The position numbers and the translations under genes were made by a program. DNA of 47,022 bases from a virus (Duplodnaviria; Caudoviricetes): positions 1-47,022 of the IMG/VR virus record IMGVR_UViG_3300031965_000052. One strand, 5' to 3'. This document shows, in pieces, positions 1 through 47,022 of the stretch (its first letter is position 1; each line of letters starts with the position of its first letter). The notes beneath the pieces were generated by a model that ran no database searches, had not been told where the DNA came from, and saw only the letters and a list, made by a program, of their open reading frames with translations.

Positions 1-90
1 TCGTTTTGACTCTTCGCGACGACGTAGTGCTCGTCGCGCAATATCACCGCCTCGTCCCTCTCCCGCCGCATCTGTTCAAGGGCGTCGGCG
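1..90. repeat. 90-bp direct repeat, copy 1 (copy 2 at 39849-39938)
   Basis: Manual alignment gives 3 mismatches (positions 15, 78, 87), all synonymous, and a 62-bp identical core. Confidence 0.95.
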
Positions 91-5919: not shown

Positions 5920-6247
5920 GAGTGTGGGGAGAAGTTTCTCGGCGAATCAGAGATTTGCCTGGTCCGCGCGCGTATTCAGCGAGAGGACAGGGGGGTGGCC
6001 TTTCGATCTTGACCTTCTGCCACTTTCCCCCGGCAGTCTGGGGGACATCTTTACCGAGTCCTGAAGGACCCTTTACCCGAACTAAGCAGATATATAACAA
6101 GGCTCTATTCGTTGAGCCCCTTAGCCGTTAACCCCTTTAAGGGCTAGGGTTTTCAGCCTGCTCCGTTCGGAGCGCATGGTGTTCTAAGCCTCTGCGCTCG
6201 TCCATCAGAAGCGATCGGGTCGATATATACGGGGCCCGTAAGTTAGA

Positions 6248-6276
6248 GAACCCCCCCAGCAAGGCCGGGGGGGTTC
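6248..6276. terminator. GC-rich hairpin in the divergent control region
   Basis: GAACCCCCCC-loop-GGGGGGGTTC inverted repeat. Confidence 0.45.
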
Positions 6277-6437
6277 AGGTCCTCATGCCGTGTGCGCAGC
6301 GAAGGACCAGAAGAACGGCTGATCTCGTCTTTGCGCACGGGCACAGGGCGGCACATTACACCCATAAGGCCCGATGTCAATAAGAGGAATTCTTGGGAAC
6401 GGGCATCCCAGAACAACGAACAAACCGGAACCCCTTG

Positions 6438-6483
6438 TTGACGCAGGACCTGGGGATTGTGGATAATGCTTCCCAGGAGGTGG
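6438..6483 (+). promoter_or_regulatory. Rightward promoter and RBS of the putative repressor-integrase operon
   Basis: TTGACG-18 bp-GATAAT, then AGGAGGTGG 5 nt before ATG 6489. Confidence 0.6.
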
Positions 6484-6923: not shown

Positions 6924-7826
6924 ATGGATCTGGTCCGGGCGTTCACGAGTTGGGGCCTGCACGAGCGCGGGTGGGAACTCACGACCCGCCAGACCTACGC
7001 CCGCAGGGTTCTGGTAGCCGATGCCTGGCTCCGCGCGCACGGGGGCAGAGGGATACGCTGGGCCGACGAAGGCGATCTGCGCGCCTATCTGTTCACCTTC
7101 GACACCGCGCGCAACCGCAACAACGTACGTCAGGCCCTTGTGGCCTTCGGGGTGTTCTGCGCCTTCACGGGTAGGCGCGCGCACAACCCCGCCGTGGGGC
7201 TTCCCCGCCTGCGGGAACCGGAACTCCTACCCCGAGCCCTAGACCACGAGCAAGCCCACGTCCTGTGGACGAACACGCAAGGCGACGCGCGCGCGATGGT
7301 TGGCTTGATGCTCTACGCGGGACTACGTAAGACCGAAGCCCGAACCCTGACGTGGGATCAACTCCACTCCGACCACCTAAGGGTCCTGGGCAAGCGCCGC
7401 AAGGAACGGGCGGTGCCTCTCCACCCTCACCTCAGACACGCCCTGGGGGGCTTGGAGCACGACGCGCGCCACCTGTTCCCCTCCCCACGCCTGCCCGACC
7501 ACCCGCTATCGGACACCGCCTGGCGGGACCGCATCCACGCCACGCGCGCGCACGCGGGGGTGTTCTTCCGCTGTCATGACCTCCGGCACACCTTCGCCAC
7601 CTCCCTGCTGGAGGCCGGAGCGGACCTGCGCCAGATACAGGAACTCATGGGCCACGCGGACCTATCGACCACCAGCATCTACCTACGGGTGCGCCCCGCG
7701 CGCCTAGCGCGCAGCGTCCTGGCTCTGGACTTCACGTCTAAGGCCCCTCAGATGCCCTCAGAGCCTCAGATGCCCCCAGGGCCTCTTGACCCCCACAGAA
7801 CCCCATCTCTGGGCTTTCAGGGCTGA
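6924..7826 (+). CDS. Tyrosine recombinase/integrase, XerC/D-like
   Basis: YAGLRKTE (R), VLGK (K), HDLRHTFAT (HxxR), LMGH and TTSIY (Y) catalytic residues. Confidence 0.95.
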   Translation: MDLVRAFTSWGLHERGWELTTRQTYARRVLVADAWLRAHGGRGIRWADEGDLRAYLFTFDTARNRNNVRQALVAFGVFCAFTGRRAHNPAVGLPRLREPELLPRALDHEQAHVLWTNTQGDARAMVGLMLYAGLRKTEARTLTWDQLHSDHLRVLGKRRKERAVPLHPHLRHALGGLEHDARHLFPSPRLPDHPLSDTAWRDRIHATRAHAGVFFRCHDLRHTFATSLLEAGADLRQIQELMGHADLSTTSIYLRVRPARLARSVLALDFTSKAPQMPSEPQMPPGPLDPHRTPSLGFQG

Positions 7827-28122: not shown

Positions 28123-29871
28123 TTAGAGCGCTACTCCTAGCTCTTCTAGCTCCGGTAGTGCCCCCACGCCGGGAACATTCGTGGTATCCCCGCCTCCCCC
28201 GCGCGCGATGCCCGAGGCTTCGGCGAAGGATTCCATTCCAGCGGGAGCGTTGTTCTGCGGCTCGGGTGGAGCGGTGATGGCTCCCAGTTGCGCCAGGACC
28301 GTCAGTTGCGTTTCCGAGTCCTTGTCCAAGGCGGTGATGAACTGCGCGCCGGGTTGGAAGTTGCCTTGCGCGGCCTGCGCGTTGATGAACTGCATCCCCG
28401 CCGCGAGCATCTGCTCTTTGAGCAACTGCTTCTCTTCGTCCACGACATCCTCGACAAGAGAATGCTTCTCCATCGCGGTCCTGCGCGAGATGAGCCCGTT
28501 GCCTGCGGCTTGGTTGAGCCTGATCTCGTGAGAGAACTGGTCCCCGCCCGCCGCGCCCCCGAACTCGACGCGCACGCCGTAGTCACCCTTGATGTCCTCT
28601 GAGGGCTTGTAGGACTCGCTGAACCGCTTGTTGTTCTGCGAGCCGATGATGTACTTGGCTTCTCCGGTGTCCAGGTACTTCTCGTCCACCTCCAAAGCAA
28701 GCGAAAGGGCTTCACCCCAGGATTCGGCTTCGATGCGTTGCAGGTGCGCGATCTCGGTCGCGAGGTTGCCTGTGATTGCGTTCACAAAAGCTGCACTCGC
28801 CACTGACTGGGAGATTTGACCGGCGCGCGCTTCCGGATAGACGGCTGCTTCGCGCGCGTCGCTGCGGGACTGGTTCAAGATGGCGAAGAGTTGCGCTGCG
28901 GGTCCGTCGGGAGGCATACGGCGCATGAACCCATCGGCCGAGCGCGAGTGCAGCACGGCTCCCGTTCCCCAATCCTCGGGATTCTCCATGTTGTATTCCA
29001 CCGGCTGCGAGGCCACCATCTCGGCGGCTGCGTCGAGCATGAGGTTCAGGATGCGGTTGTTGGACTCCAGAACTCCTAGGGTCTGGTCGAACACTCCACG
29101 GAACTGTCCGTCGAAGGTGGGGCGCGCGCCGATGACGGCCGGGACGCGACTCAGGAGGTTCTTCGAGTGCTTCAGTTCCACCGCGCGCTTGGTTCCGTTG
29201 GGGTTCGTGATCTCCGCCACGCGCACGAACTCCGAGGAGTCGTAGTACTCGATGACGCTCACGAGGTCCGCTTCACCCTTGCGCGATGCCTTCGATGGCT
29301 CTAGAGCCAACTCGGGGTAGTCCTGCGCTAGCACGGCGCGCGAGGCTTGGTACGCAACAAGGAGGTTCTTCACGTCCCGGTCGGGGCTCCAGATGCGGTC
29401 CGGGTAGGCCCAGCGGGGGTCGATGCGCCGGATGCGCGCGCAGTCTGCGTCGGGCATCACGACCTTGTAGGAGACGCCCGCGACCATCAGGTCGATGAAG
29501 TACCGCGCCGCCTGGAGGGGATAGCGGTTCTTGGCGCGGATGAACTCCGCGATTCGTTCCCGCTTCTCCGCTCGCGGTCGGGCGCGCTCCGAGGCGGGGT
29601 CGCACCTCACGCTCGGGATGACCGAGGACGCCATCCCTGCGGCGTCGTCGATCTTGAGTTGGATGATGTTCGGGACCTTGGGCATCTCCACGACCGCCGA
29701 GGAGTCGGGGAACACCACATGCCAGTCCCCGCGCGCGAAGGCATCCACGCGCGCCACGCGGTCGTGATGGTTGCGCCAATGCGTCACGCGCGACTCGTGC
29801 TCGGAGATGTAGGCGCTCGCCATCTTTCGCTCGGCGAGAAGTTGCGTCAGGTCCGTGAAGGTGTCAGCCAC
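28123..29871 (-). CDS. Portal (head-tail connector) protein
   Basis: 582 aa directly after terminase; IRRIDPRWAYP and VIEYYD patterns of podoviral-type portals. Confidence 0.85.
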   Translation of the reverse strand: MADTFTDLTQLLAERKMASAYISEHESRVTHWRNHHDRVARVDAFARGDWHVVFPDSSAVVEMPKVPNIIQLKIDDAAGMASSVIPSVRCDPASERARPRAEKRERIAEFIRAKNRYPLQAARYFIDLMVAGVSYKVVMPDADCARIRRIDPRWAYPDRIWSPDRDVKNLLVAYQASRAVLAQDYPELALEPSKASRKGEADLVSVIEYYDSSEFVRVAEITNPNGTKRAVELKHSKNLLSRVPAVIGARPTFDGQFRGVFDQTLGVLESNNRILNLMLDAAAEMVASQPVEYNMENPEDWGTGAVLHSRSADGFMRRMPPDGPAAQLFAILNQSRSDAREAAVYPEARAGQISQSVASAAFVNAITGNLATEIAHLQRIEAESWGEALSLALEVDEKYLDTGEAKYIIGSQNNKRFSESYKPSEDIKGDYGVRVEFGGAAGGDQFSHEIRLNQAAGNGLISRRTAMEKHSLVEDVVDEEKQLLKEQMLAAGMQFINAQAAQGNFQPGAQFITALDKDSETQLTVLAQLGAITAPPEPQNNAPAGMESFAEASGIARGGGGDTTNVPGVGALPELEELGVAL

Positions 29872-32677
29872 GCGCTAACCTTGCCTCGCGCGTCCCGCGC
29901 TCCCCACGCTCCCGCCCTGCTGGGCGCATCCACGGACGCCGCGACACCAGCGGGTCTTGAATCCTGCGGTGAGTGTTCTGTCGCTCGCGGTTCAGGACGT
30001 TCACGCTGAACCAGAGCGCCATCGCGAGGTCCCAATGGCTCCCGTGGTGAGACGTGGCGCGCGGACGCCAGCCCAACAGGTCGTCGCACAGGGGCTTCAT
30101 CCTTCGCTGGGCGTCCAGGTCCCCCCAGGCGATCTGGAGCTTGCCCGAGGCCATCTTGGACGCCACCAACCCCATTCCGACTCCGGGGTCGTGCTTGTTC
30201 GCGCCCGTCTGGAACGGAACCGGGCGCGCCCCTTCCTCGTAGATGAACCTCTGGACGTGAGGAACGTCTGAGAACAGGTGAGAACCACCTTGGGCTTCGA
30301 TGATGACCTGCTTGGGTTTGTGCCGGTAGACATGACGTTGGAGCATCTCGAAGAGTCCGTCGTGGCGGGGGTTGCGCTTGGCCTCGCAGTCGATGACGCG
30401 CATGGTCCCCGAAGCCCGATCCCAGGCAACAACAACCAGTCCGGCAGTCTCGGAGCGCGCGGGGTCAAGGGAGATGATGCGTTCCCATTCCTCGGGCGCG
30501 TCGGTGAACGGCCCCTTGGACATATCCACAAGGTCCACGGGGAACATCGACGTTCCCTCGGGGGTGGGGTTGTTGAGCATCATCATCTCGAACTCGGCGG
30601 GCGTCATGTCCTCCGCCAGCTCTTTCAGCTCCGAGACGGAGTACATGTCCTCGCACAGAGACGTTCCGTCTGCGTTGTAGGCGGACTGCATGTCCAGCAT
30701 CCAGCCCTTTCGTTCCATCAGGTGTGAGTACACGTCGTCGTGCCCACAGCGGTTGCCGATGCACACAACCTTGCCCCCGTCGTTCAACCGGGTTCTCAGG
30801 GTGGTGTTCACGGCGCGGAGGATCTTCTTACGCTGGTCTGTTGAGTTTGTGGGGTCGTCGATGTCGTCCAAGATGATGAGGTCCGCGCGCGCGCCGAGGA
30901 TCTTGCCTGTGATGCCTACTCCTTTGACCGAAGGGTCACGCTCGGTAGACGTTCTCCCGCGAACGTAGAACGACAGCGCCCCCCAGCGCATAGCCCGGTT
31001 GTCCGACTTGCCGATCCACCCCCCCCAACGAGCATGCAGGTCCGGGTAGAGCCTTTCATCCGTCAGAGTCTGTTGGATGGCGTAGATGCGGTCCTTCGCC
31101 AGCCCCTCGGAGCCGCAGACGTAGAGAATCCTTGCGTTGGGGTTGCGGCATAAGGTGTAAACAACGAACTGCTCCAAGAGCTTGGTGTTGTGCGTCAGCA
31201 CCCCGCCCGTTCGGTATGTCTCGTCCTCGGTCTGTATCGCGACGGTGGGGCGCGGACCCAGGTTGGTGACGCTGGCTACGACATCGGTGAGGACGCCGGG
31301 GAAAGAGGTGGGCTTGTAGGTCTTGATCCACCCGTCCACGCGCTCGCGCTTTGCCCCAACGGGATTCAGAACACGCAGTAGTCGCCAAGCGTTGTCCCCG
31401 GAGTACGTGAGCCGCCACGACTCGTACTCTTTGCCGTTCAAGATGGTGGGCTTGCGCTTCATGTGCCCCGCCGCGCCGAACCGCGCCGCGAGCGACTGGA
31501 TCTCAGACACCAACCGCTGGTTCGCCAAGCCCCACTCGACCCGCAGGACCTCTGGTCGGTGCGTAGCCTTGCGTCCATCCCTGACAGCGAACCACTTGTG
31601 CCGGTCGGTGACAGAGCCGTCGGTGTCCAGCAATCCCGACAGGTACGCCGCGACCGTATCCGCATCCCCGCGCAGGATGGCCTCGGGCGTGGTCTTTTGC
31701 TTCGCTCCCTTGTTGTAAAGCCCCCAGGAGCGGAAGTAGGCGCGCGAGCCGCTGCGGAAGTGCCGTTCGACGTGATTGGCCTTCTGCCGGTCCGTCCACT
31801 CCCACCCGCGCGCTGCGGCGAAGGTGGCCGTGGCTTCAAGCACCGCAGGATCGGCGTTTGCGAAGGAGCAGTTCCCCGACGACAAGCATCCGTCACCGAT
31901 CATCGCCCCCAGGAACCAAGCCTCCTCGGGCGGGACGCGCCCCTGGCCGTGTACCGCATCCACCTCAACCGTATGACCCGTCATCTCCGAAGCCACGATC
32001 CACCCGGAGGGCGTCCAGAAGGGGTGGTTGCCGGTGACGTAAATCTCGCGCCCGTGCTTGGTGGCGACCAGGTAGGTGTCCCGAACGCCGTTGTCGGAGA
32101 CGGCTTCTACCCTCGTGGGGCCGTTGATCCCCAGAACCTTGTCCCCGGCGCGAACGTCGGCATGGCGCTTGCTCGACCCGTCGGCCATATCGACCAACTG
32201 CTCGGTCCAACCACACTTGGCGAATCTCACGGGCCAGATGGCCAGGATGCGACGGGTTTCGGAGTCAGAGAGCGCATCAACGAAGCGCTGCATGTAGGGG
32301 TAGGTCACTCCCACGTCCTGCTGCCTTAGGGTCAAGGGGTTCTCTTCCACTACTGACAGGAACTCGGCACGAAATGCAGCGAAGGTTCCGGTGTCGGGAG
32401 GCCCTTGGCCTTGATGGATGACCGCGCGCAGAGCCTTTACCTGTCGCAGCCAGTCTGTGTCTCTTTTGGCGTACCACTCCAGGGCTGATCTGGTCAGTCC
32501 AAGGTCGATAGCCACCGCATCCCAGGTGAGTTGAGGATTCTCCCGCCACAAGTCCAAGGCCCGCGCGCGCGCCCAGGCGGCAAAAGCCCTCGTGCCCTTC
32601 TTATGACCCGTAGTGGTTGCAATCATGTGCGTGTGGGCTGAAGCGCCCTTGCGGGCGGACGCACCCTTGCGTGGCAT
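29864..32677 (-). CDS. terL: Terminase large subunit with N-terminal HTH-like extension and an intein
   Basis: Walker A PVRFAK/T, GARADLIILDD Walker B, IGNR coupling motif, ISLDPA nuclease motif, DLAMALWF. Confidence 0.93.
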   Translation of the reverse strand: MPRKGASARKGASAHTHMIATTTGHKKGTRAFAAWARARALDLWRENPQLTWDAVAIDLGLTRSALEWYAKRDTDWLRQVKALRAVIHQGQGPPDTGTFAAFRAEFLSVVEENPLTLRQQDVGVTYPYMQRFVDALSDSETRRILAIWPVRFAKCGWTEQLVDMADGSSKRHADVRAGDKVLGINGPTRVEAVSDNGVRDTYLVATKHGREIYVTGNHPFWTPSGWIVASEMTGHTVEVDAVHGQGRVPPEEAWFLGAMIGDGCLSSGNCSFANADPAVLEATATFAAARGWEWTDRQKANHVERHFRSGSRAYFRSWGLYNKGAKQKTTPEAILRGDADTVAAYLSGLLDTDGSVTDRHKWFAVRDGRKATHRPEVLRVEWGLANQRLVSEIQSLAARFGAAGHMKRKPTILNGKEYESWRLTYSGDNAWRLLRVLNPVGAKRERVDGWIKTYKPTSFPGVLTDVVASVTNLGPRPTVAIQTEDETYRTGGVLTHNTKLLEQFVVYTLCRNPNARILYVCGSEGLAKDRIYAIQQTLTDERLYPDLHARWGGWIGKSDNRAMRWGALSFYVRGRTSTERDPSVKGVGITGKILGARADLIILDDIDDPTNSTDQRKKILRAVNTTLRTRLNDGGKVVCIGNRCGHDDVYSHLMERKGWMLDMQSAYNADGTSLCEDMYSVSELKELAEDMTPAEFEMMMLNNPTPEGTSMFPVDLVDMSKGPFTDAPEEWERIISLDPARSETAGLVVVAWDRASGTMRVIDCEAKRNPRHDGLFEMLQRHVYRHKPKQVIIEAQGGSHLFSDVPHVQRFIYEEGARPVPFQTGANKHDPGVGMGLVASKMASGKLQIAWGDLDAQRRMKPLCDDLLGWRPRATSHHGSHWDLAMALWFSVNVLNRERQNTHRRIQDPLVSRRPWMRPAGRERGERGTREARLARG
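31187..32215 (-). mobile_element. 343-aa intein with LAGLIDADG homing endonuclease
   Basis: Begins CGWTEQLVDMADG, block B VTGNHPFW, FLGAMIGDG and YLSGLLDTDG, ends VLTHN followed by Thr. Confidence 0.95.
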
Positions 32678-36917: not shown

Positions 36918-37003
36918 CAGAGTCTGTCGATCAGCTTGAACAGCAGCACAACGCACACGACCACGACGACCAGGGTGACGAGCGCGCCTGCCAGTCGGTT
37001 CAC
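36917..37003 (-). CDS. Single-helix membrane peptide (lysis cassette)
   Basis: MNRLAGALVTLVVVVVCVVLLFKLIDRL; GTGA and TGATG overlaps. Confidence 0.55.
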   Translation of the reverse strand: MNRLAGALVTLVVVVVCVVLLFKLIDRL

Positions 37004-37161
37004 CGACGCACCCACAACCCGCCGACGACGTGCGCGCCCGCCAGGAACGCAAGCCCAACTGCCGTCAGGGCGTGGTCATCGCCGACATCGAAGAACCCGA
37101 CGATGGCGAAGAACACCACGGCGACAATCGCCAGGATGGCACCGAGCGTAGTTCCGTTCAT
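37000..37161 (-). CDS. Putative holin (two transmembrane helices)
   Basis: MNGTTLGAILAIVAVVFFAIVGFFDVGDDHALTAVGLAFLAGAHVVGGLWVRR; RBS AAGGAGGAGG; upstream of the endolysin. Confidence 0.65.
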   Translation of the reverse strand: MNGTTLGAILAIVAVVFFAIVGFFDVGDDHALTAVGLAFLAGAHVVGGLWVRR

Positions 37162-37182
37162 TGTCCTCCTCCTTCTATCGGT

Positions 37183-37629
37183 TCACGGACATAACGGTTC
37201 CGGCACTTCGCACGGCGTCGGGCTTGGACTCGGACTAGGCTCGGGCGTAGGTGCGTCTTGACCGTCCTCACCGTCCTCGCCGGGATCGCCTTGATCGCCC
37301 TTGTCTCCCTTGATGGACTCGCCGTCCTGGCCGTCTCTACCGTCCCGACCATCCTTGCCGTCGCGTCCGTCACGGCCTGCTGGTCCCGACGGACCAACGG
37401 CTCCCAAGGGTCCGGGTGGTCCTTCGCGCACGAGTACCCCGAGTTCGGTCAGCAGCGTGTTGATCTCGCGTGGGCTGCGCGCTTCGACCAGTTGCGCGGC
37501 AACAGATTGCAGATGCGCGAGTTCGGCTGCTTGCTCGGTGGCAACGTCCCCCAGGTGGCGCACCTGGAGCAGCGCCCACGCGAAGGTCAGGATAGACACA
37601 ACGATCAGCGCGGCTCTTAGGAGCTTCAT
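37183..37629 (-). CDS. Membrane-anchored collagen-like protein
   Basis: N-terminal TM, G-X-Y repeats (GPPGPLG..GRDGRDGKDG..GDKGDQGDPGEDG), PS/PT tail. Confidence 0.85.
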   Translation of the reverse strand: MKLLRAALIVVSILTFAWALLQVRHLGDVATEQAAELAHLQSVAAQLVEARSPREINTLLTELGVLVREGPPGPLGAVGPSGPAGRDGRDGKDGRDGRDGQDGESIKGDKGDQGDPGEDGEDGQDAPTPEPSPSPSPTPCEVPEPLCP

Positions 37630-37988
37630 CGCTTCGCCTTGGCCTTCTTAGTCGCCTTGCGCGCGCGCCCTACACTCAGGTCCGCCGCCGTGAGGAGTTC
37701 TTTCAAGTCGGCGATCTCCTTGTGCATCTCGGTGATGCGCGCGTCTGCTCTGTCGGCGCGGTTGCGCTGTTCGGCTAGGTTGTTGTTCGCCAGGTCGTGC
37801 GTACTGACTCCCACGGCTGCGATCCCGTCCAGCTTGCTCGCCTGTGTGTCGCCTTGTTTGCGGAGCGCGTAGAGCTGCGTGATTATCAGAACCGCGATCG
37901 AGGTCAGCGAACCGATCAGCGCGATCCACACCGCGTTGACGCTGGGTGCGATCTCTTGGGCGACCACCGGGGCCTCCATGAGGGCCAT
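37626..37988 (-). CDS. Membrane protein with coiled coil (lysis cassette)
   Basis: TM VWIALIGSLTSIAVLIITQLY followed by a coiled coil. Confidence 0.7.
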   Translation of the reverse strand: MALMEAPVVAQEIAPSVNAVWIALIGSLTSIAVLIITQLYALRKQGDTQASKLDGIAAVGVSTHDLANNNLAEQRNRADRADARITEMHKEIADLKELLTAADLSVGRARKATKKAKAKR

Positions 37989-38012
37989 GCGCCCATCGTG
38001 TCCAGGCGGTCA

Positions 38013-38372
38013 CTACCCCTCTGGGGCTTCTTCCGGTCCCCAGGTTGCCTGCTTGCACAACTCTGTCAGTTGGTCGAACATCGCTTCGGCCGTGGGGGAG
38101 TGGTTGCGCGCGCGCAACCAGTCGATCAAGGCGCACATCTCCTCCTGGAGTTCCAGCAGGTCTGCGTCGGGGGACAGGGGTTCGTCGGGGCGATGACGTT
38201 CTTTGTCTCTTTGCCTTCTCTTGCGCTCGCGCCAGTTCTGTCTGCGCGCGCGGTCCCTCGTGTGGTCGTTGTCCACGTACTCCGCGTGTCGCTTCTCCTC
38301 CGCGCAGACCAAGCACAACCCCGTGTCCGGTAGGGGGTAGTTGCGCCCGCAGACGCAGAGGCGACGGGTCAA
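38013..38372 (-). CDS. Hypothetical zinc-binding basic protein
   Basis: CVC...CLVC then an Arg-rich helix. Confidence 0.55.
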   Translation of the reverse strand: MTRRLCVCGRNYPLPDTGLCLVCAEEKRHAEYVDNDHTRDRARRQNWRERKRRQRDKERHRPDEPLSPDADLLELQEEMCALIDWLRARNHSPTAEAMFDQLTELCKQATWGPEEAPEG

Positions 38373-38668
38373 GCCTCCCAGACCCCCGGAAGGGTTTCCT
38401 GTCGGGGTGGGTGGACCTCGACGATGGTGACGGGATCTGCGCGCCCGGTGTCAGGAGCGCAGGTCTGGACGTACACCAACCCTTCTCCGAAGGGCTTCAA
38501 GGCTGCCGCGGCTTCCACCTCGTAGTAGGCCGTGACCTTCAAGATGGTGCCCGCCTGGTAGGGCTTCTCGGGCGCGGGCAGTTCATGACCAAGGACGCGG
38601 AGCTTGTTGTCCGTGGCGGGGATGTAGAACCCCGTGAACGCGGGCTTGAGGTGCGCTACTGCTTCCAT
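38369..38668 (-). CDS. Hypothetical protein
   Basis: RBS AAGGAGG, 99 aa. Confidence 0.6.
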   Translation of the reverse strand: MEAVAHLKPAFTGFYIPATDNKLRVLGHELPAPEKPYQAGTILKVTAYYEVEAAAALKPFGEGLVYVQTCAPDTGRADPVTIVEVHPPRQETLPGVWEA

Positions 38669-38690
38669 GCTTCCTCCTTGGGTCGGTCAC

Positions 38691-39029
38691 TCATCTTGGG
38701 TTCCTCTCTAGGGCTGCGCGGAGGTCTACGGCGGACTCGATAATGTGTCTCTGCTCTCCCCCCGGCTCTTGACGCAGCATGGCAAACTGCGTTCTCAACG
38801 CTTCGATGTGAGAGAGGAGCGCGCGCGCCGCCTCCGTCAACTCGGCTACTCGTCGCTCGGCGTTCTCTAATTCGGCGAGGAGGGAGTCGGCGAGGGTGAG
38901 GGCTTCATCCACGTCGCTCATCAACGGCGACCAATGGGGCGGCACCTGGCTCTCGTGCCACTTCTTAGAGCGCAGGTTGTTCTTGTTGCGGATGCCTTCC
39001 AGCCGCGCGCGCACGTCCTGCTTACTCAT
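38691..39029 (-). CDS. Cassette protein with coiled coil (Ead/Ea22-like architecture)
   Basis: MSKQ...AERRVAELTEA...RAALERNPR. Confidence 0.7.
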   Translation of the reverse strand: MSKQDVRARLEGIRNKNNLRSKKWHESQVPPHWSPLMSDVDEALTLADSLLAELENAERRVAELTEAARALLSHIEALRTQFAMLRQEPGGEQRHIIESAVDLRAALERNPR

Positions 39030-39246
39030 CTTGGTTTCCTCCGAGGGTTCGCCGAGACAGGTCAACATCGAAGGGGGCATCCGTGAGTTCGGTGTGCGGT
39101 GCTGCACCCATCGAGCATCGGCGGCAAAGCAGGGTGAGATACCAGCGATCAGTCTCAAACTGGTCATGCGTGGAGCGTTCGACCTTCGCTTCCCGTCTGC
39201 ATCGCGCGCCCCGCTCGTCGAGACGCTGGCACCGCTGCTCACTCAT
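39022..39246 (-). CDS. Cassette protein, Cys-containing
   Basis: MSEQRCQR...CRRC...RRTLGGNQDE; bounded by junction repeats. Confidence 0.65.
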   Translation of the reverse strand: MSEQRCQRLDERGARCRREAKVERSTHDQFETDRWYLTLLCRRCSMGAAPHTELTDAPFDVDLSRRTLGGNQDE

Positions 39247-39346
39247 GGGTTCCTCTCAGGGGTTGCGCCGTTCGTTATGACTCACAGACGAGATAGGGAT
39301 TGGCGAATTTCACGTAGACATGGGTGCGTGTGTACGTGTTACTCAT
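39239..39346 (-). pseudogene. Truncated cassette gene
   Basis: MSNTYTRTHVYVKFANPYLVCES then a stop at 39275, just before the next, degenerate junction. Confidence 0.5.
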
Positions 39347-39644
39347 CTTGGGTTCCTTCCAGGGTTGCGCGGGCGAACTCTTGAACGCTAACGATGGCGA
39401 CGTAGTTGCCTGATTCGCCTTCGTCCTCGTACTGTTTGACGAGAGCGGGCGCGGCTCCATCCGCTAGTGTCCGCAGCGCGCGCTCCAACTCCGTTACTCG
39501 TTGCTCGGCGCGAGCATGGGCGTCTACGACGGCGCGTAGGTCAGACACCTGCACCGACGCACGGACGGTCACCCTCGTTTCAGCGTCAATGGCGTGATTC
39601 AATACCCGCCCTATCGCTTCTTGCAGCACGTCCTGCTCACTCAT
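39339..39644 (-). CDS. Cassette protein with coiled coil
   Basis: MSEQ...AEQRVTELERA...RATLEGTQDE. Confidence 0.7.
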   Translation of the reverse strand: MSEQDVLQEAIGRVLNHAIDAETRVTVRASVQVSDLRAVVDAHARAEQRVTELERALRTLADGAAPALVKQYEDEGESGNYVAIVSVQEFARATLEGTQDE

Positions 39645-40012
39645 CTTGGGTTCCTCTCCAGGGTTGCGCGGGCTGCGGTGCGCGCACTCTCCAGGGCGCA
39701 GCCGGGGCACCCCAAGGCGTGCAAGGCGCGCGATGTGGTCACGTTTCCCTCGTGCGCGAAGGCGTGGCCGGGATTCGCGCTTGTTTCCAGTAGAACCCCG
39801 AGCGCCTCCCTCAACTCCGCCACTCGTTGCTCGGCGGCTTCGGCGCGGTCGTTTTGACTCTTAGCGACGACGTAGTGCTCGTCGCGCAATATCACCGCCT
39901 CGTCCCTCTCCCGCCGCATCTGTTCGAGGGCGTCCGCGAGGCGGGTGACGATAGATAACAACGTGTATTTCCGCGCCTCTGCGATAAGGGCTAGAATCTC
40001 AGTGTCTCCCAT
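39641..40012 (-). CDS. Cassette protein with coiled coil spanning the segment A/B junction
   Basis: ADALEQMRRERDEA...AEQRVAELREA...RATLERNPR. Confidence 0.75.
   Translation of the reverse strand: MGDTEILALIAEARKYTLLSIVTRLADALEQMRRERDEAVILRDEHYVVAKSQNDRAEAAEQRVAELREALGVLLETSANPGHAFAHEGNVTTSRALHALGCPGCALESARTAARATLERNPR
39849..39938. repeat. 90-bp direct repeat, copy 2
   Basis: Matches 1-90 with 3 mismatches. Confidence 0.95.
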
Positions 40013-40173
40013 TTCATTCCCTCCTTCACGTAGATTAACACACCATACCGGGTCTCAGCACGCGGCCAATACTTGCCGTCCTCCCCCTGGATGTACTCCG
40101 GGGGCAGGTCGGTCCCGGCTATGACAAACTCCTGCCCGTCATACCGTCCTCCGAAGACACGGAGGTAGGTCAA
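39991..40173 (-). CDS. Small hypothetical protein
   Basis: MTYLRVFGGRYDGQEF..., with a GGxxDG motif; TTG start after an AGGAAGAG RBS. Confidence 0.55.
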   Translation of the reverse strand: MTYLRVFGGRYDGQEFVIAGTDLPPEYIQGEDGKYWPRAETRYGVLIYVKEGMKWETLRF

Positions 40174-40192
40174 GGGGTACTCTTCCTGCTGC

Positions 40193-41923
40193 CTAACCCT
40201 TTGCACTGACCCAGTCCTTTCCTACATGTGGGGTACAGTTGACCACCCAGGGTACCCGGATGTCTAGCTGGGTCTCCGCGTGTGTTACCGAATCCGCGAA
40301 CACCTGTACACACTGGTCGGCCTGGTCCTCGGGGACCTCGCAGACAATTTCGTCATGGACCTGCAACAGCATGGGTATGTTCAAGGAGTACATGTGGTTC
40401 ATCATGTACTTCATGATGTCAGCCACACTCCCTTGAATGACCGCGTTGATGGCCTGTCTCTCAGCCCGGTGACGCAGGCCCCAGTTGCTACTGTTGATGG
40501 CGGGCAGGTGGCGGATGCGCCCGCCGAGGGTGACCACATATTCGTTCCGGCGACAGTATGTCAGCACCCGTTCCTGCCATTCGTACACCGCAGGGAACTG
40601 GGCGCGGTGCTTGTCTAGCACCTCTTGGACAAAGGCCACGGACTGGTCAGGGGCATACTTCTCCTTCACTGTCTTAGCCTTAGCCAAGTAGTTGATGGAG
40701 AAGTTGATGTTCTTCGCTAGGTCCCTGTCCACTGACACCAGGTCAGCGGTGGTCTGGTGGATGTCCTCCCCATTCTCGAATACCCGGCACAGTTCAGGGT
40801 CGCGGGACACGTAGGCCAGCAGGCGGTACTCCACCTGGTCCAGGTCCCCGACCACCAGCACCTTGCCAGGGTCAGCAACGAAGAAGGACCTTAAGAGTCG
40901 TCCGTATTCTCCTCGTCGGGGGATGTTCTGGAGGTTGGGGGAGTTCGAGGAGAGTCTTCCGGTGACGGTTCCGGTGGAATTGAATCGTCCGTGAAGGCGT
41001 CCAGCAACACAGAAAGTCGGGAAGGTGACCAGGTAGGTGCCGTGAAGCTTATCGAGTTCTCTCCATCGTAGGAGCCTTCCCGCCACCGGGTCCAGTGGTC
41101 CAACCTGTTGTAGAGTCTCCTCATCCGTTCTTGCCTGGCCTCCGGCAGTCTTACCGGGCGGGCGCAGCCCTCTCCCTTGTCTTTCAACCTCGACAGTCTT
41201 AAACTTCTGCCGACCCGTGCTGTATTCTCCATCCTCCCTCCTCTCCGTGTCTACCCATGTGTCAGTGAACAAGACTTGCCCAACCTGCTTCGGGCTGTTG
41301 AGGTTGAACTCATACCCTACCTCCTTGAACAGTTCTTCCTTTAGTGCTGATGCCTCTACTTGCACCTGGTAGTCTGTCTCGGCCAGGCGCTGAAGGTCCA
41401 GCCGGACCCCGCGCTGTTCCTTCCCGAACAGGGCGCGGTCGAAGGGGACCTCAACCTTTAGGTACCAGTCCTGCAGGGGCTTGGGAAGCAGGGTCCAGAA
41501 GAAGGGGACCAACGCCTTGGTCGCCTCGGCGTCTGCCATACAGTACCGTAGGACCTCGTCCTGCGGCGCGTCCACGATGTGGGTCTTGTAGTCCCGCCAG
41601 TAGGTGACCCCTTCGCGTACCTTGATGGGGTCCTCTAGGCTATAGCCTAGGTACCGCTCGGTCAGGGGCTTAAGACCATGGGCCATTTCCTCTTGGTACA
41701 ACCAGGCCAGCATCAATGAGTCGTACTTCAAGGGGGCGGGGTATGCCCCCAACACCAGGTAGTCGTTCCTCCCACCATGGGTGGCTACCGTCGAAAGGCT
41801 GTTAAAGGTGGTGAGGGCTGTGTCCTTAGAGAACGTGGAAGCATGTCCGTCAGTGAAGCAGGCGAGGTAGTAGCCACAGCCACACTTGCACCACTCGCTA
41901 TCGAAGCCGACCAGGCTTTCCAT
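40193..41923 (-). CDS. polA: Family A DNA polymerase with 3'-5' exonuclease domain
   Basis: GFDSE (ExoI), YCMAD (ExoIII), TGRLSSNSPNLQNIP, motif A DLDQVEYRLLA, motif B RDLAKNINF, motif C VHDE; likely ATG at 41923. Confidence 0.95.
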   Translation of the reverse strand: MESLVGFDSEWCKCGCGYYLACFTDGHASTFSKDTALTTFNSLSTVATHGGRNDYLVLGAYPAPLKYDSLMLAWLYQEEMAHGLKPLTERYLGYSLEDPIKVREGVTYWRDYKTHIVDAPQDEVLRYCMADAEATKALVPFFWTLLPKPLQDWYLKVEVPFDRALFGKEQRGVRLDLQRLAETDYQVQVEASALKEELFKEVGYEFNLNSPKQVGQVLFTDTWVDTERREDGEYSTGRQKFKTVEVERQGRGLRPPGKTAGGQARTDEETLQQVGPLDPVAGRLLRWRELDKLHGTYLVTFPTFCVAGRLHGRFNSTGTVTGRLSSNSPNLQNIPRRGEYGRLLRSFFVADPGKVLVVGDLDQVEYRLLAYVSRDPELCRVFENGEDIHQTTADLVSVDRDLAKNINFSINYLAKAKTVKEKYAPDQSVAFVQEVLDKHRAQFPAVYEWQERVLTYCRRNEYVVTLGGRIRHLPAINSSNWGLRHRAERQAINAVIQGSVADIMKYMMNHMYSLNIPMLLQVHDEIVCEVPEDQADQCVQVFADSVTHAETQLDIRVPWVVNCTPHVGKDWVSAKG

Positions 41924-42120
41924 TCTTGCACCCCCTTCACAGTGACAACAGCATCCAATATGTTCAGCACGTAGAACCCATGCAGCCCTAACTCCCAGTT
42001 CACCCAGATGAACGCGGGGATGGTGGCGGCTTTCCACCACCAGCCGTCAGCCTTGAACTTCACCAGCCGGTAGTTCGCCCACACCCTCGCTATGCTTATC
42101 AAGATACTGGCTAACAGCAC
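41785..42120 (-). CDS. Small membrane protein (PnuC-fragment-like)
   Basis: Hydrophobic, Trp-rich GWWW...FIWVNW...G..EWK; 3' end overlaps the polymerase start. Confidence 0.4.
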   Translation of the reverse strand: MLLASILISIARVWANYRLVKFKADGWWWKAATIPAFIWVNWELGLHGFYVLNILDAVVTVKGVQEWKAWSASIASGASVAVATTSPASLTDMLPRSLRTQPSPPLTAFRR

Positions 42121-42262
42121 GCCCTAGCTCCTCTCTGGGGTACAACAGGTCCCACCTGTCCATCAGGTGGACTACCATGGCTAGTATGGTCTCTCTGTCC
42201 AGGGTCAGCGGGTCCGCATCTTTGACCCGCCGCACAACCTCGTTAACTCTCAGGGATGGCAA
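42047..42262 (-). CDS. Hypothetical protein
   Basis: 71 aa, RBS AAGGTAGG. Confidence 0.5.
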   Translation of the reverse strand: MPSLRVNEVVRRVKDADPLTLDRETILAMVVHLMDRWDLLYPREELGRAVSQYLDKHSEGVGELPAGEVQG

Positions 42263-42455
42263 CGCTACCTACCTTCCGAAAGATGCAGACGTGACGCCCG
42301 CTGTCGATAGTACGGGACAGGACGGCCACACCCTGTATGACCTCGGTCACGGTCCACTCCTTGCCGTCGATGTGAAAGACCCGACCCAGTAAGGAGTCGT
42401 TCGTAGAACTTGCGCCTCTCTTCTTCAAGGGCCATACTCCTTCGTAGTTGGTCAC
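42243..42455 (-). CDS. Hypothetical protein
   Basis: 70 aa in a packed operon; start uncertain. Confidence 0.45.
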   Translation of the reverse strand: MTNYEGVWPLKKRGASSTNDSLLGRVFHIDGKEWTVTEVIQGVAVLSRTIDSGRHVCIFRKVGSVAIPES

Positions 42456-42487
42456 GCAGGTAGCGGGTCAGGACAGCAGCAGCTGGG

Positions 42488-42856
42488 CTAGACCTTCCGG
42501 TAGACATAGACGGGAACCCCTGCCTCGGCGGCAATGGACACCATGTGCTTTGTACCCTTCGACTCTCGAAGGTCCTTGTCCACGAAGGCAACGACCAGGT
42601 CGGGCTTGCCCTCCTCTAGCATCTGACGGTTGCGCACGAAGCCAGCACCCCGACCGTGCTTCTTCCAGTTCGCCGGGAAGGCGAGGACCTCCGCGAACAC
42701 CCGCCGCCCCCATGCAGCGGCGAGGCTGTCTGCCCCGCGTGCCGCCCCCTGGATAATAACCGGGGGTCCGCCACCTCGGGCAACAAAGGGGGCTAGGTGT
42801 TCGATGAGGAACTTCTCATCTTTGAAGGTACGGGACCCGCACACCAACAGTCTCAT
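42488..42856 (-). CDS. SLOG-superfamily protein (DUF2493/YspA-like)
   Basis: LLVCGSR, IIQGAARGADSLA, FPANWKKHGRGAGFVRNRQML, SKGTKHM. Confidence 0.88.
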   Translation of the reverse strand: MRLLVCGSRTFKDEKFLIEHLAPFVARGGGPPVIIQGAARGADSLAAAWGRRVFAEVLAFPANWKKHGRGAGFVRNRQMLEEGKPDLVVAFVDKDLRESKGTKHMVSIAAEAGVPVYVYRKV

Positions 42857-43727
42857 CTGTCTCCTCCTCTACCATTCGCATTGACGGCTTCTTCCAGTAC
42901 ACCTTGACCCCCTCGAAGTGGGAGTCCCCATGCCGGTTCTTTAGTACCCCGACTCGGACCTCTCGTTCACGCGCCAGGCGCTCACCGGGGTCCATCTCAG
43001 GGTCAAGCCCAGGTCGCCAGACACCAAGGATGTAGTCGGCGTCAGCCTCGCCCCCATACATGGCATGTTCCATCATGACCGGGAGATGCCCGTGGTTGGT
43101 ACCGTTCTCCCCACGGTTCACTTGGTGAACCATGACCAGGGCAACACCGGCTGTCTTGGCGAACCCCTTCGCATCCTCCGCGAGTCGGGCCACACGCTCG
43201 GCCTCTCCTCGGGGGTAGCCATAGAGGGCCATAAGTTTGAGGTGGTCAACAACCACCATGGACATCGGTTGACCGAGGAGGTTGGAGGTCTCGTCCACCC
43301 AGTTACCCAGGTCGTCCCAGTTGGGGCGGGTGGAGTCGTCAATAGAGAGAGTCCTCAGCACGCTAGCCTCACCCAGCACAGCTGGGGAGTCGGGGTGGTC
43401 CCCGTTCTTGATGAGGGCTTCCTCCACCTGCCACACGGGCAGGCCCAGGTCTGCTGACAAGGCGCGCACTGTCATTTCCTCGCGCCCCATCTCTAGGCTG
43501 GCAAAGTTTACGGCGTGTCCTGTCTTTGCAGCATGAGTGGCAATAGCGGTAGCGACAGCGGTCTTCCCGACACCCGTTCTACCAAGCAGCAGGCACGTAT
43601 GGCCTGGTCGCAGGCCACCCCGAAGCAGGTTGTCAATAGTTGGGAAGCCAGTAGGTATGCGTGTGTTGTCGTCCCTAACGTAGTCACGGGCTTCTCCTAA
43701 CAGCTTGCCGAATAGTTGGACTTTCAT
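42816..43727 (-). CDS. dnaB: DnaB-like replicative helicase (C-terminal ATPase domain)
   Basis: IPTGFPTID, GRTGVGKT Walker A, SLEM, VVVDHL, HQVNR, LKNRHG. Confidence 0.93.
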   Translation of the reverse strand: MKVQLFGKLLGEARDYVRDDNTRIPTGFPTIDNLLRGGLRPGHTCLLLGRTGVGKTAVATAIATHAAKTGHAVNFASLEMGREEMTVRALSADLGLPVWQVEEALIKNGDHPDSPAVLGEASVLRTLSIDDSTRPNWDDLGNWVDETSNLLGQPMSMVVVDHLKLMALYGYPRGEAERVARLAEDAKGFAKTAGVALVMVHQVNRGENGTNHGHLPVMMEHAMYGGEADADYILGVWRPGLDPEMDPGERLAREREVRVGVLKNRHGDSHFEGVKVYWKKPSMRMVEEETDETVGVRVPYLQR

Positions 43728-43811
43728 GTCCCTCCTTCGGGCAACGGGGGGAGGGGAACACACCCCTTCTCCCCCCGCGCGCCCTGGTTGCACCGCAAGC
43801 GTTCCTGTTGT

Positions 43812-44234
43812 CTAACCGCTGAGGTACTCGGGCACCGTCGAAGACGACTGGGCACCGTTCATACCAGCCAGGAAGGCGGTAGCCGTCCGGTTGATGAACT
43901 GGTCGCGGGCCTTGTTGGCCAGCCACTCCACGTAGCTGGGGTCTACCGCGTAGACCTCAGCCAGAGACTTCCCCGCATGCTTGCGGTAGGTCTCCTTCAA
44001 CCGCAACGAACCTGGGTCGGCTGGCGTGCTGCTGCCCCCACTCGGGGTACTCGCAGTGCCACCGTCGCTGTCCTCGATGGAACACAGGTCCTCGAAGACC
44101 TGGCCCTTCACCGAGGAAAGCAGGTCCATCACAGACATCCCTTCTGGAACCTCATTCACACTGATGAGAGCCGACACCACCGTGGCGGCGACGTTCCAAG
44201 AGGTCTGACCGAGACTAGTCTTTCCAAAAGCCAT
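43812..44234 (-). CDS. Hypothetical protein with C-terminal KHxGK...DPSYVEWL domain
   Basis: Motif resembles the exonuclease-X C-terminal/DUF3820-like module. Confidence 0.6.
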   Translation of the reverse strand: MAFGKTSLGQTSWNVAATVVSALISVNEVPEGMSVMDLLSSVKGQVFEDLCSIEDSDGGTASTPSGGSSTPADPGSLRLKETYRKHAGKSLAEVYAVDPSYVEWLANKARDQFINRTATAFLAGMNGAQSSSTVPEYLSG

Positions 44235-45107
44235 TTACTCACCTCCTCCATTATGGTATAACTTCACACACATCTCTGCTGTCGGGGACCACTGATGCTG
44301 CCAGTCTCTGATGTAGTCAAAGCCTGGTGGCATGGGGGGCAGTTCCTTGTCTGCCTCGTAGCGGGCGTAGGCGTCCTGTAGTGTGGTGTAACGGGCCACC
44401 AGCAGGGCCTCCACCTCCTCGTCGGGCCACACGTCGGGCACCCGCACTGGGTGGGTCCCACTCCGCGACGTGTTGGCTACCTGCACGGACTTGGTAACTT
44501 CCAAGGGCATGACGCTGTCCTCTGCTACGTATACCACCCCCAGTCGGTTGATGTTCAACTCGTTGGGCTTCACCCCACCGAGGTCGGGTTCCCACCGCTT
44601 GGCGTTGTTGACCAACCAACGGTAGTCTTGCACCTGGGCACAGTGGTTGTCCCACGGCTTGCCCCAACGGGGGAGCTTCTTCGGGAACTTCCAGTCCCGT
44701 AGCACGGCACCGTCTGGGGTGACAAGCATGTCGTCAATCTTACCGTGTATCTCACACCCGTCCAGTCCAGGGAGGTCAGCCCAGAAGCGAACCTCGGACA
44801 CAGCACCCCGCTGCGCACCCTTCTCCATCAGGGAGTGGAACATGGTGCCCCGCCAGGCCCACCAACGGGCAGTCAGGTCCACCACGTAGTCGTTGTACTT
44901 CTGCAACACAGCACACCGAAGACAGATGGGGTTAAGCATGGTGACACTGATACCCCCCGGACGTGGCTCGTCCTCCACCATGGTACGCAGGATGGGGTAT
45001 GGGACCGGGAAGAACGGGTCGTTCGCGGCCATGTCCAGCAGTTGCTGGCCGGTGTGGGTGTACGTCTTACCACCCTTCGCCTCCCACTTGTACGCGGCTA
45101 CTGCCAA
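44235..45107 (-). CDS. PD-(D/E)XK (RecB/Cas4-like) nuclease
   Basis: SVTML..CLR, RGTMFH, E, HGKID, DWKF, QVQDY. Confidence 0.85.
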   Translation of the reverse strand: MAVAAYKWEAKGGKTYTHTGQQLLDMAANDPFFPVPYPILRTMVEDEPRPGGISVTMLNPICLRCAVLQKYNDYVVDLTARWWAWRGTMFHSLMEKGAQRGAVSEVRFWADLPGLDGCEIHGKIDDMLVTPDGAVLRDWKFPKKLPRWGKPWDNHCAQVQDYRWLVNNAKRWEPDLGGVKPNELNINRLGVVYVAEDSVMPLEVTKSVQVANTSRSGTHPVRVPDVWPDEEVEALLVARYTTLQDAYARYEADKELPPMPPGFDYIRDWQHQWSPTAEMCVKLYHNGGGE

Positions 45108-45108
45108 G

Positions 45109-45897
45109 TTAACCTCTCCTCTCTCTGAGAACCGTTCTCATTAGTTCATCCTCTGACAACGGGTCCTCGAACGTGTCGTTAGCGGTAAGAACCGCCGCCA
45201 CAACAACCTCAGAGGGGAACCCTCTTGACATCAGCCAGTAGGCCAGTCGGTTGAGGCCGTTGTTCCTGCCGTCCGGGGCGTGGCCCGAGTACAAGGACTC
45301 AATCCAGTCCTCACGTCCCTGACCACCTGCGGTGGTGCTGCCCGAGTGTTCTCCCCCTCTACTATATAAACCGTTGAAGGGTACCCGGCGCAACTCACCG
45401 AACTCGAAGTGACTTCTCACCCCCGTCCCCCGGCTTACGCCTAGGGGGATGCGGATGAGGTTGCCCAGCCCGCTGTTACGTTGGGCTTGTTTGGGATACA
45501 CCTCGGCTGTTACCCCAGCCCGTGCTAGCATGGCTGTGCCATACTCTAGCACTAAGCCTGCGTTCACAGGTTCCGTAAAGTGCTGCCAGATGTGGCGTCC
45601 ACGGCCTCCTGTATGCTCGACAAGATACGGCGGTCTTAGTACACCCACTAGTTGTGCGATGGGGGTGGGGTCTAACGTGTCCACGTCCCATACTACGAAG
45701 GTAGTAGTGTCGTCAGCACGCAGAGGGAAGGTACCGATGGTCTTTCTCCCTGCTAAGTGGAGACCCAACACGTCGGCGTCGAGGTGTCCCATGCTTACCC
45801 GCCACCCGTCCTCCGCTTCGTACGCGAACGCTTCGGGGTTGCCAACGAAGTAGTCTTCGAGGAGGAGGACTGCATCCTCACCTGGGCCAGCCGCCAC
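45109..45897 (-). CDS. Archaeo-eukaryotic primase (prim-pol) with PriCT-like C-terminal domain
   Basis: VVWDVD, EHTGGRGRHIW, EVYPKQ, GNLIRIPLG, GRNNGLNRLA; frame is open to 46116, true start uncertain. Confidence 0.85.
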   Translation of the reverse strand: MAAGPGEDAVLLLEDYFVGNPEAFAYEAEDGWRVSMGHLDADVLGLHLAGRKTIGTFPLRADDTTTFVVWDVDTLDPTPIAQLVGVLRPPYLVEHTGGRGRHIWQHFTEPVNAGLVLEYGTAMLARAGVTAEVYPKQAQRNSGLGNLIRIPLGVSRGTGVRSHFEFGELRRVPFNGLYSRGGEHSGSTTAGGQGREDWIESLYSGHAPDGRNNGLNRLAYWLMSRGFPSEVVVAAVLTANDTFEDPLSEDELMRTVLRERRG

Positions 45898-46160
45898 AAG
45901 GCGACCCAGTGCCTCAGCAGAATACGATTCCTCGTCCTCGCTGTCAGCGCTGTCAGGCACCCGTGGCACGTCGGGCACAGAACTCTCAGGTCCGTGTGTT
46001 CCGGGTCGTTGCCCACCCCCTTGACGTGGTGGCCGTGGACTCTCCGTGCTGAATACCCGCATACCTGGCATGCCTTTCCTACCTCCTTGATTAGTTTCTT
46101 GCGGGCAGCCCGCCACTCCTTGGTTTGGTATGGGCTAGGACCCTTGCTACGCCGGGGCAT
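45795..46160 (-). CDS. HNH endonuclease
   Basis: YQTKEWRAAR, CQVCG, HGHH, LRVLCPTCH. Confidence 0.8.
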   Translation of the reverse strand: MPRRSKGPSPYQTKEWRAARKKLIKEVGKACQVCGYSARRVHGHHVKGVGNDPEHTDLRVLCPTCHGCLTALTARTRNRILLRHWVALWRLAQVRMQSSSSKTTSLATPKRSRTKRRTGGG

Positions 46161-46166
46161 GGGGGC

Positions 46167-46703
46167 CTAGCGGCGCTTGCCTGGGTACCGGGCAGCCAGG
46201 GTGAAGCCGAAGCCGAGGGCTAGGAAGAACAGACCTAGCCCCAGGGCACCGTCGCTTACTCCGGTTTGTGCCAGTCTTGGACCATTCTCCACTCGGGCCA
46301 CAGGCGGTCCAGCTTTTCCTGCACCCGTTGGATTCGGCGTGTCTTGCGGCGGAGGTGGCGACGGAGTTTCCGCTGACGCCGTAGGGCTAGGCGTAGGGCT
46401 TTGCGTTGGTGTCGGTCCATCTGTGTCCTCCTCGTAAACAACGTAGTACGAGATGTCCTTACCGTCTGGTGTGGTGAAGGTAGTACCTGTCAGCACCCCC
46501 GAGTTGGTGGTAGACCACTTCACACAGAAGGTAGTCTCCTCCTCGAAGGTCACGGTTGGGCCGAAGTGGTTGCCCACCTCTGTCTTGACCCCGCCGCTGG
46601 GGCAATGCAGTCCTGCCGGTGGGGCTGCCACGGCTGTGGCTGGGGACAACACCAGGAGTCCCGCTGCCACCAGCCCCAGCAAAAGCTTACGAGTTACGTT
46701 CAA
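46167..46703 (-). CDS. Secreted cell-wall-anchored protein with LAXTG sorting signal
   Basis: Signal peptide ending AVA, small Cys-bridged domain, PT/PS linker, LAQTG + hydrophobic helix + RYPGKRR. Confidence 0.8.
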   Translation of the reverse strand: MNVTRKLLLGLVAAGLLVLSPATAVAAPPAGLHCPSGGVKTEVGNHFGPTVTFEEETTFCVKWSTTNSGVLTGTTFTTPDGKDISYYVVYEEDTDGPTPTQSPTPSPTASAETPSPPPPQDTPNPTGAGKAGPPVARVENGPRLAQTGVSDGALGLGLFFLALGFGFTLAARYPGKRR

Positions 46704-46900
46704 GCTTCCTCCTTCTTACAACAAGACACGACGGCTTGGCCTTCAAGCCGCATGTGGTGGGCGACTGACTCAATGTTGCGGAGCCGAAGTACCTCTGCAG
46801 TGAGACACGCTATCTCGTCATTAGGAGAGGGGCCTACACCCCCATCGGTTATCTCCCAGTGCTCCTCGTTGCTCACTCCTGTCCTCTCTGCCTCACTCAT
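46700..46900 (-). CDS. Cassette protein starting at the sixth junction repeat
   Basis: MSEAERTG...; ATG lies inside the junction repeat. Confidence 0.6.
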   Translation of the reverse strand: MSEAERTGVSNEEHWEITDGGVGPSPNDEIACLTAEVLRLRNIESVAHHMRLEGQAVVSCCKKEEA

Positions 46901-47022
46901 CTTGGGTTCCTCCGAGGGTTGCGCGCAAACGGTTGATGTCCCCAAGGGACACCCAACAACAGAACTCCTCGGGTGGGGCATCATCAAAGACCACGACTGC
47001 GCGTATCGCCTCCGTCAACTCC
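46893..47022 (-). CDS. Partial cassette protein (5' end off the window)
   Basis: Manual translation ELTEAIRAVVVFDDAPPEEFCCWVSLGDINRLRATLGGTQDE*. Confidence 0.75.
   Translation of the reverse strand, partial: ELTEAIRAVVVFDDAPPEEFCCWVSLGDINRLRATLGGTQDE

Follow-up and report, generated by a model that had tools for sequence, protein, structure and literature searches.

An array of small genes in an uncultured bacterial virus is joined by a repeat of about 30 bp, and we consider it likely that homologous recombination swaps both whole genes and gene segments at this junction and at short in-frame linkers that the genes contain. The repeat, the paralogy of the genes, and mosaics bordered in linkers and junctions were observed directly, and some two dozen further sequences from uncultured viruses are arranged in this way, with genes and gene pieces variously combined. 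The array design is more general than the first-pass annotation of this DNA had seen, and less special than a dedicated cassette system would be.

Phage type and gene content

The window, meaning the whole stretch of 47,022 bases that was analysed, is an entire virus record from an uncultured bacterial virus. Its products include a terminase, portal, capsid, tail spike, amidase endolysin, tyrosine integrase, LexA-like protein, and WhiB. Because of this gene set, the window reads as a temperate phage, and WhiB suggests that the host is probably an actinobacterium. The array is encoded on the minus strand, with the replication block on one side and the lysis genes on the other, and the tyrosine integrase (6924-7826) is remote from it, adjoining the LexA-like gene. 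Recombination-type genes in the window comprise a Cas4-like exonuclease and a Rap-like nuclease, together with a possible OB-fold protein (weak match); scans of 56 and 27 ORFs returned no match to a RecT/Erf/Sak-type annealase. The sole capsid relative (G006, 74%) has only head genes in common with the window and carries no array. We also observed that the N-terminal region of the terminase large subunit (29864-32677, 937 aa) matches primase/helicase families, and that the intergenic region 6243-6480, upstream of the integrase, contains short inverted repeats and is a candidate attP or immunity region. GCGC and CGCG are very frequent in 1-39848 (about 20 per kb; 257 GCGCGC), far exceeding their content in both G006 and the 7-kb block described below.

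A conserved junction connects consecutive genes

The junction repeat reported in the first-pass annotation was borne out in six copies, all on the minus strand. A 30-nt probe taken from one copy (39639-39668) gave exactly six matches within 6 edits in the window, all on one strand, and 0 matches in 30 simulated third-order Markov genomes. Over the 27 nt before the start codon, identity was 0.80 among the six copies (15 pairs), compared with 0.43 at 28 other gene starts (378 pairs). Thus, the junction far exceeds a plain RBS and start codon, to which the earlier annotation had allowed that it might reduce.

Following the minus strand, junction 1 (39637-39671) provides the last codons and stop of gene A and the RBS and start of gene B, and junction 2 (39339-39373), a form shorter by 1 nt, ends B and starts ORF C. 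Junction 3 (39236-39270) is a drifted copy with a 3-nt loss that starts gene D; it is not read as a gene end and comes after the stop of ORF C instead of providing it. Junction 4 (39022-39056) ends D and starts gene E, and junction 5 (38687-38721) ends E, its own start opening merely a 12-codon ORF (38656-38694). Most copies thus fit the description of a repeat that closes one gene and opens the following one, the exceptions being those at 39236 and 38687. Junction 6 (46893-46926) is located in the 3' part of a further paralogue at the contig end. It had been counted with the other five, and it probably does not belong to the same phage, given that it lies in a 7-kb block with a foreign signature and half the read depth.

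The two reading outcomes attributed to a 1-nt indel (..ERNPR* and ..GTQDE*) are present. The spacer sequence is kept although it is read in two frames, as NPR* or TQDE*. Protein selection alone would not have this effect, so it seems to be the DNA itself that is conserved. The repeat is also non-palindromic and not attC-like, as previously stated: none of the six copies contains a hairpin or dyad (folding z from -0.58 to +2.09 against shuffles), and the homology-dependent route favored earlier over an attC-like one fits copies that do not fold. A consensus scan, of a type that may miss actinobacterial promoters, detected no promoter- or terminator-like site in 38688-40012.

Several array genes are paralogues with internal linkers

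The DNA between the repeats, which had been described as largely unrelated, turned out to be mostly paralogous: genes A, B, E, and the end gene are paralogues, which leaves C and D as the only unrelated bodies. Gene A (39641-40012, minus strand; 123 aa) consists of a head, linker 2 (ADALEQMRRER), a middle, linker 3 (RAEAAEQRVAEL), a tail, and the junction end. Its paralogues B (39339-39644; 101 aa) and E (38691-39029; 112 aa), both likewise on the minus strand, carry linker 3 at 39486-39510 and 38829-38862, respectively, and the 3' part of the further paralogue (46893-47021, minus strand) carries junction 6. The bodies of these four share a linker of 23-34 nt at 87-92% identity, encoding AE(Q/R)RV(A/T)EL, and all four match one profile, itself built including A, B, and E. 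Between them, ORF C (39275-39346, minus strand; 23 codons) stops ahead of the next junction and is likely a remnant, and gene D (39022-39246, minus strand; 74 aa, containing cysteine) has an unrelated body with a junction end and no PHROG or Pfam match. AlphaFold predicted for A a helix over residues 3-79, a loop, and a second helix over 103-120 (mean pLDDT 83, pTM 0.51). The RA(A/T)L residues at the gene end fall within a predicted helix and may be kept for the protein's sake.

Segment exchange within the gene family

Profile searches extended the family by 20 proteins built alike (P0004, P0008-P0024, P0002, and P0010), in which a start motif, linker 2, linker 3, and an RA(A/T)L end surround three free segments. 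P0002 equals gene A over residues 1-64 and then has a different tail ending like that of E, and P0010 has the tail of the end gene, identical to its 3' part in the window, behind a different head. Both switch at a linker, and their sequences identify them as recombinants of the window's own gene parts. Comparison of 23 family proteins (190, 190, and 231 pairs per segment; 60 shuffles; P0015 cut wrongly) revealed 11 pairs with one segment 90-100% alike and the other segments at most 33% alike (P0001/P0002 share two). As retrieval by shared words favors such pairs, these 11 establish that mosaics exist and do not give their frequency.

Metagenome assemblies provided variants of the array itself. 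In run X1, a contig at depth 7.9 joins 38724 to 39804, and its sides translate to the two linkers bracketing the tail of P0002. In run X2, from a separate study, a 913-bp contig contains A's tail at 97% with the middle segment (exactly 57 nt) skipped or replaced, and continues with 32 nt of linker 2 and then sequence absent from 37000-47022; the comparison was made at 80% likeness, a level at which joints can derive from other organisms. No RNA data set was listed as containing the window. The junction-skipping forms and circles that the first-pass annotation had suggested looking for did not appear: neither direct joins between two array junctions nor closed circles were seen among the contigs of runs X1-X3, which represent 66-87% of each run and drop rare forms. 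Different genes between the same junctions, another outcome it had anticipated, were found in the window's own family (P0002, P0010) and in the other phages described next.

The same design in other viruses

A generic junction pattern identified 87 viral loci, and in 84 of them the reading frame of RA(A/T)L reaches its stop codon within the junction. Once loci with both neighbors alike had been merged (13 groups, 15 loci dropped), 69 distinct contexts remained, in 29 of which the upstream frame matches the family profile (E 0.01). The junction of a locus recurs there in 2-6 copies at 32 of the 87 loci, with none on the opposite strand. Among distinct loci of at least 2.5 kb, 24 of 66 repeat their own junction, compared with 26 of 215 other coupled boundaries (p 3e-5), most of these other boundaries being drifted copies of the same junction.

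Twelve pairs of loci have just one neighbor in common, which is the end of the upstream gene in six pairs and the downstream gene in the other six, and L042 differs from L025 by one additional 245-bp gene between junction copies. Units running from linker 3 to the junction recur in different arrays at 178-191 bp and 97-99% identity (L025/L042, 178 bp, 99%; L057/L083, 191 bp, 98%; L034/L050, 191 bp, 97%); the last of these is the first unit in one array and the last in the other, away from the search centre. In L085, one junction ends six genes. The L006 array has a different junction and two paralogues that are alike just in the linkers (86-90%), and its linker 3 is 81% like that of A. Unrelated genes also close in the local junction, namely D in the window and a poly-Ala gene in L006, as well as in L085. 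RA(A/T)L is kept across phages whose junction DNA otherwise differs. Among 136 array proteins, five exceeded a cut-off in Pfam; two of these are restriction-alleviation proteins of the Lar type, and the others match RyR, YqaJ, and DUF5856.

Several further features of these arrays were recorded. A KKAAPSNKMF-type tail segment precedes four different junction sequences (L023, L060, L084, L085 and P0009), which indicates that segments travel between phage groups. A second, distinct repeated gene end adjoins the RA(A/T)L array in L006 (2473-2737) and L038, and one copy closes a Thy1-family gene. The poly-Ala gene of L006, which differs from its L007 counterpart by 40 nt, looks similar to an Imm5-like protein with an alanine-rich repeat in the window (5154-5690); their alignment was without significance.

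Searches for closer relatives returned little. The exact junction pattern had one chance match in viral contigs (L001) and matched only the window's own contig in metagenomes, and gene A, P0002, and PolA gave chance or distant matches only in viral contigs. No match was confirmed in prokaryote genomes, where one weak match of 54 residues (L011) appeared, and cultured phages yielded nothing for the window array, three family proteins, or two other arrays. One match in a cultured phage, RcapNL, was rejected as an antisense chance hit. Pseudomonas phages share pieces of L062, and the two regions examined contain no such array. Across viral contigs, metagenomes, prokaryotes, and cultured phages, we found no close relative with the full array.

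We then examined where shared blocks end. In 25 pairs, 35 shared blocks gave 70 ends, of which the 13 lying at edges and the 11 lying at the search centre were removed. In the resulting unbiased count of 46 ends, 3 fell at a junction (null 1.5), 7 at a linker (null 2.9), 21 at another gene end (null 11.2), and 15 at none of these (null 30.4). In this small and non-independent set, junctions and linkers are enriched as breakpoints no more than ordinary gene ends. Two points bear on how the loci are read: they were chosen by the junction pattern, which biases borders towards the centre, and the 13 locus groups with both neighbors the same count against shuffling. The earlier proposal of junctions as recombination points for cassettes holds to the extent that swapping of genes and segments is supported. 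The units are often segments between linkers and not whole cassettes, circles and junction-skipping contigs did not appear, and the 46 ends give junctions no advantage over ordinary gene ends.

Is the contig a join of two phages?

The sequence is probably composed of two co-occurring phages connected within a 106-bp repeat that both carry (39820-39925, no strand assigned). This repeat extends from linker 2 to linker 3, and the assembly graph branches at it. Beyond it, a foreign replication block of 7 kb (39980-47022, minus strand) encodes PolA, a DnaB-like helicase, and a primase. GATC occurs 0 times in 39927-47022 versus 145 times in 1-39848, GCGC amounts to 3.4 per kb versus 20 per kb, and the composition changes at 39980-40090. 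In run X1, possibly the source of the window, 37000-39849 lies on a single contig at depth 12 (depth read over 37000-47022), and the block contigs are at depth 5.6-6.8, with breaks at 39849 and 39925. The block also carries a SLOG-family gene and a secreted-looking protein (46167-46703), and its primase is an AEP primase.

The first 90 bases are 97% identical to 39849-39938, and the earliest mismatch opening the other path comes 77 nt past the contig start. A word size of 77 is usual for assemblers, and a split at this distance is expected if an assembler of that word size closed a 39,848-bp circle there. The 5' part of a further paralogue at 1-242 (minus strand) is likely what truly precedes the tail of A in such a circle, and the 5' part of gene A probably belongs to the second phage. 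A reading of contig end and start as one gene with 30 nt missing was dropped on the evidence of P0010. Both the window and an independent X1 contig end at base 47022, just before a difference between A (Ala) and P0002 (Gly), and there may be a fork with two upstream partners at this base.

Somewhat unlikely, by our assessment, is a true insertion of the 7-kb block into phage 1, in which recombination between copies of the 106-bp repeat would have placed the block in some members of the population and no assembly join would be involved. Family members flank the block on either side, reads could span a repeat of this length, and a mixed population would likewise fit the half depth. Against this, the contigs of P0002 (3709 bp) and P0010 (5734 bp) extend the two block ends into sequence absent from the window, the depths pair as 12 against 6-8, the contig starts exactly one usual word size ahead of the path split, and run X2 has A's tail without the block ahead of it. 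Pieces of the block at 99-100% are also present in X2. On either reading, two phages of different DNA signature have a 97% repeat and a junction in common, which in itself suggests that they exchanged DNA recently. A warning for similar assemblies is that repeats of this kind can merge two phages into a single metagenome contig.

Comparison with known systems

The array is best read as a widespread, apparently uncatalogued variant of boundary-sequence recombination that acts on genes and gene segments. Lambdoid boundary sequences were reportedly described originally by Clark et al. 2001. In the boundary-sequence case of Island3 genes 67/68 versus Brujita, neighboring small genes end in about 50-60 bp of common sequence, and general recombination between the copies adds or removes a gene (Pope et al. 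2011, PMC3029335). Like Island3, the array design has neighboring small genes with common ends and gene gain or loss between copies, a border repeat longer than an RBS plus start, and different genes at the same boundary; as for borders, 10 of 46 ends fall at a junction or linker (null 4.4) and 21 at other gene ends (null 11.2). Unlike the single pair in Island3, there are up to six copies per row, a protein family, in-frame linkers that shuffle segments, and many phages.

Other systems share fewer features. The PeSL of T4-type phages are intergenic promoter and stem-loop units of about 100 bp for which mini-circles were shown (Arbiol et al. 2010, PMC2839356). Both systems have repeats between small unknown genes, homologous gain and loss, and expression signals that travel with the gene, whereas the repeat here is 30 bp, coding, and without a hairpin, and the array has no promoter-like site inside. 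The SAS of Cluster K mycobacteriophages are 13-bp sequences scattered over the right half of the genome, and some are accompanied by inverted repeats of 17 bp (PMC3203893). The junction resembles SAS in being non-palindromic, in one orientation, and directly before ATG, and differs in being 30 bp long, half coding, and limited to the array of one gene family; instead of preceding many unrelated early genes, it has six copies only, five of them in one array. Neither do the copies resemble integron attC sites, as the six fold no better than shuffles and the only integrase is of phage type and distant from the array.

Ea22 (lambda and Stx phages; PF13935) offers a parallel at the protein level. 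This small early protein has a coiled coil made of blocks that can be exchanged, and its C-terminal part is unrelated from phage to phage, yet all close with a short common end, '+GE', whose significance is stated to be unknown (PMC7093339, PMC8614690). Like Ea22, the array proteins have a long helix (predicted here), then a variable C-terminal part and a constant end. Membership in Ead/Ea22 was rejected: PF13935 had no match in the window, four array-bearing records, or 17 family proteins, and among the 136 array proteins it had one match, below the cut-off. Apart from this, the family was suggested just by an Atlas lead (0.83). By analogy, the array proteins may work like Ea22, and we do not place them as PF13935 members. 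Our literature search found no description of this gene family; subscription papers and supplements lay outside its coverage and could affect the novelty.

Proposed mechanism and rival explanations

We propose that a family of small phage genes for helical proteins ends in the repeat as common DNA, which also covers the RBS and start of the next gene, and that, with two or three in-frame linkers, this repeat would provide joints for ordinary homologous recombination within and between phages. A crossover between two junction copies would add or remove a gene and leave stop, RBS, and start whole, and one in a linker would keep the frame and create a new head-middle-tail combination; recombination would also keep the copies alike as DNA. 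Such crossovers would occur within 25-120 bp of common DNA, with a phage annealase or host RecA as the assumed recombinase. Phage Rad52-like recombinases are reported to handle short, diverged sequences (PMC3945230). The proteins are most likely early accessory proteins, in which the helix may oligomerise and the variable segments may meet host targets, a function that we infer only from the Ea22 analogy and the Lar neighbors.

The array could alternatively be a by-product of tandem duplication, with the helix and RA(A/T)L under protein selection and non-homologous joining anywhere, of which only joints at gene or domain borders survive. The equal enrichment of breakpoints at ordinary gene ends, the retention of RA(A/T)L within a predicted helix despite differing junction DNA, and the fact that most mosaic borders lack boundary sequences (PMC3029335) all agree with this explanation. 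We nevertheless regard it as improbable, because the same 30-nt DNA closes unrelated genes, the spacer is conserved in two frames, the 97-99% shared units start within a linker and stop at the junction, and the X2 variant alters exactly the segment between linkers.

It is much less probable that the main role of the repeat is to control translation, through binding of a factor from the phage or the host, with recombination secondary. The fixed position before ATG, single orientation, and lack of a palindrome are SAS-like (PMC3203893); yet every copy lies in one array or at a paralogue end and not across early genes, half of the repeat codes for the upstream gene, the start in one copy opens no more than a 12-codon ORF, and the internal linkers show the same kind of conservation without any start. 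Least plausible, to the point of being very hard to credit, is a dedicated site-specific, integron-like cassette system driven by the phage tyrosine integrase. An integrase is encoded, and cassette-sized units do lie between direct repeats, but the copies have no hairpin or dyad, exchange also takes place at linkers of different sequence, junction DNA varies from phage to phage, and the integrase gene sits beside the LexA-like gene, remote from the array.

Implications for phage mosaicism

Whether phage mosaicism arises through built-in short homologies or through random joining and selection is a long-standing question with few published boundary examples. The arrays add a searchable signature, an RA(A/T)L gene end fused with the next RBS and start, of which 69 distinct natural examples are available, and exchange is seen at the scale of gene segments of 60-190 bp. 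The findings also point to a large family of small phage proteins barely known to Pfam and PHROGs. More tentatively, and as a possibility that we hold to be less than even, many unrelated phages may build proteins combinatorially, from small helical genes with up to three free segments between four in-frame linkers, chained by stop-RBS-start junctions and drawing on a traded segment pool, which would let them keep renewing the proteins they direct at host targets, for example defence systems. If this is true, the constant '+GE' end of Ea22 proteins would be such a junction.
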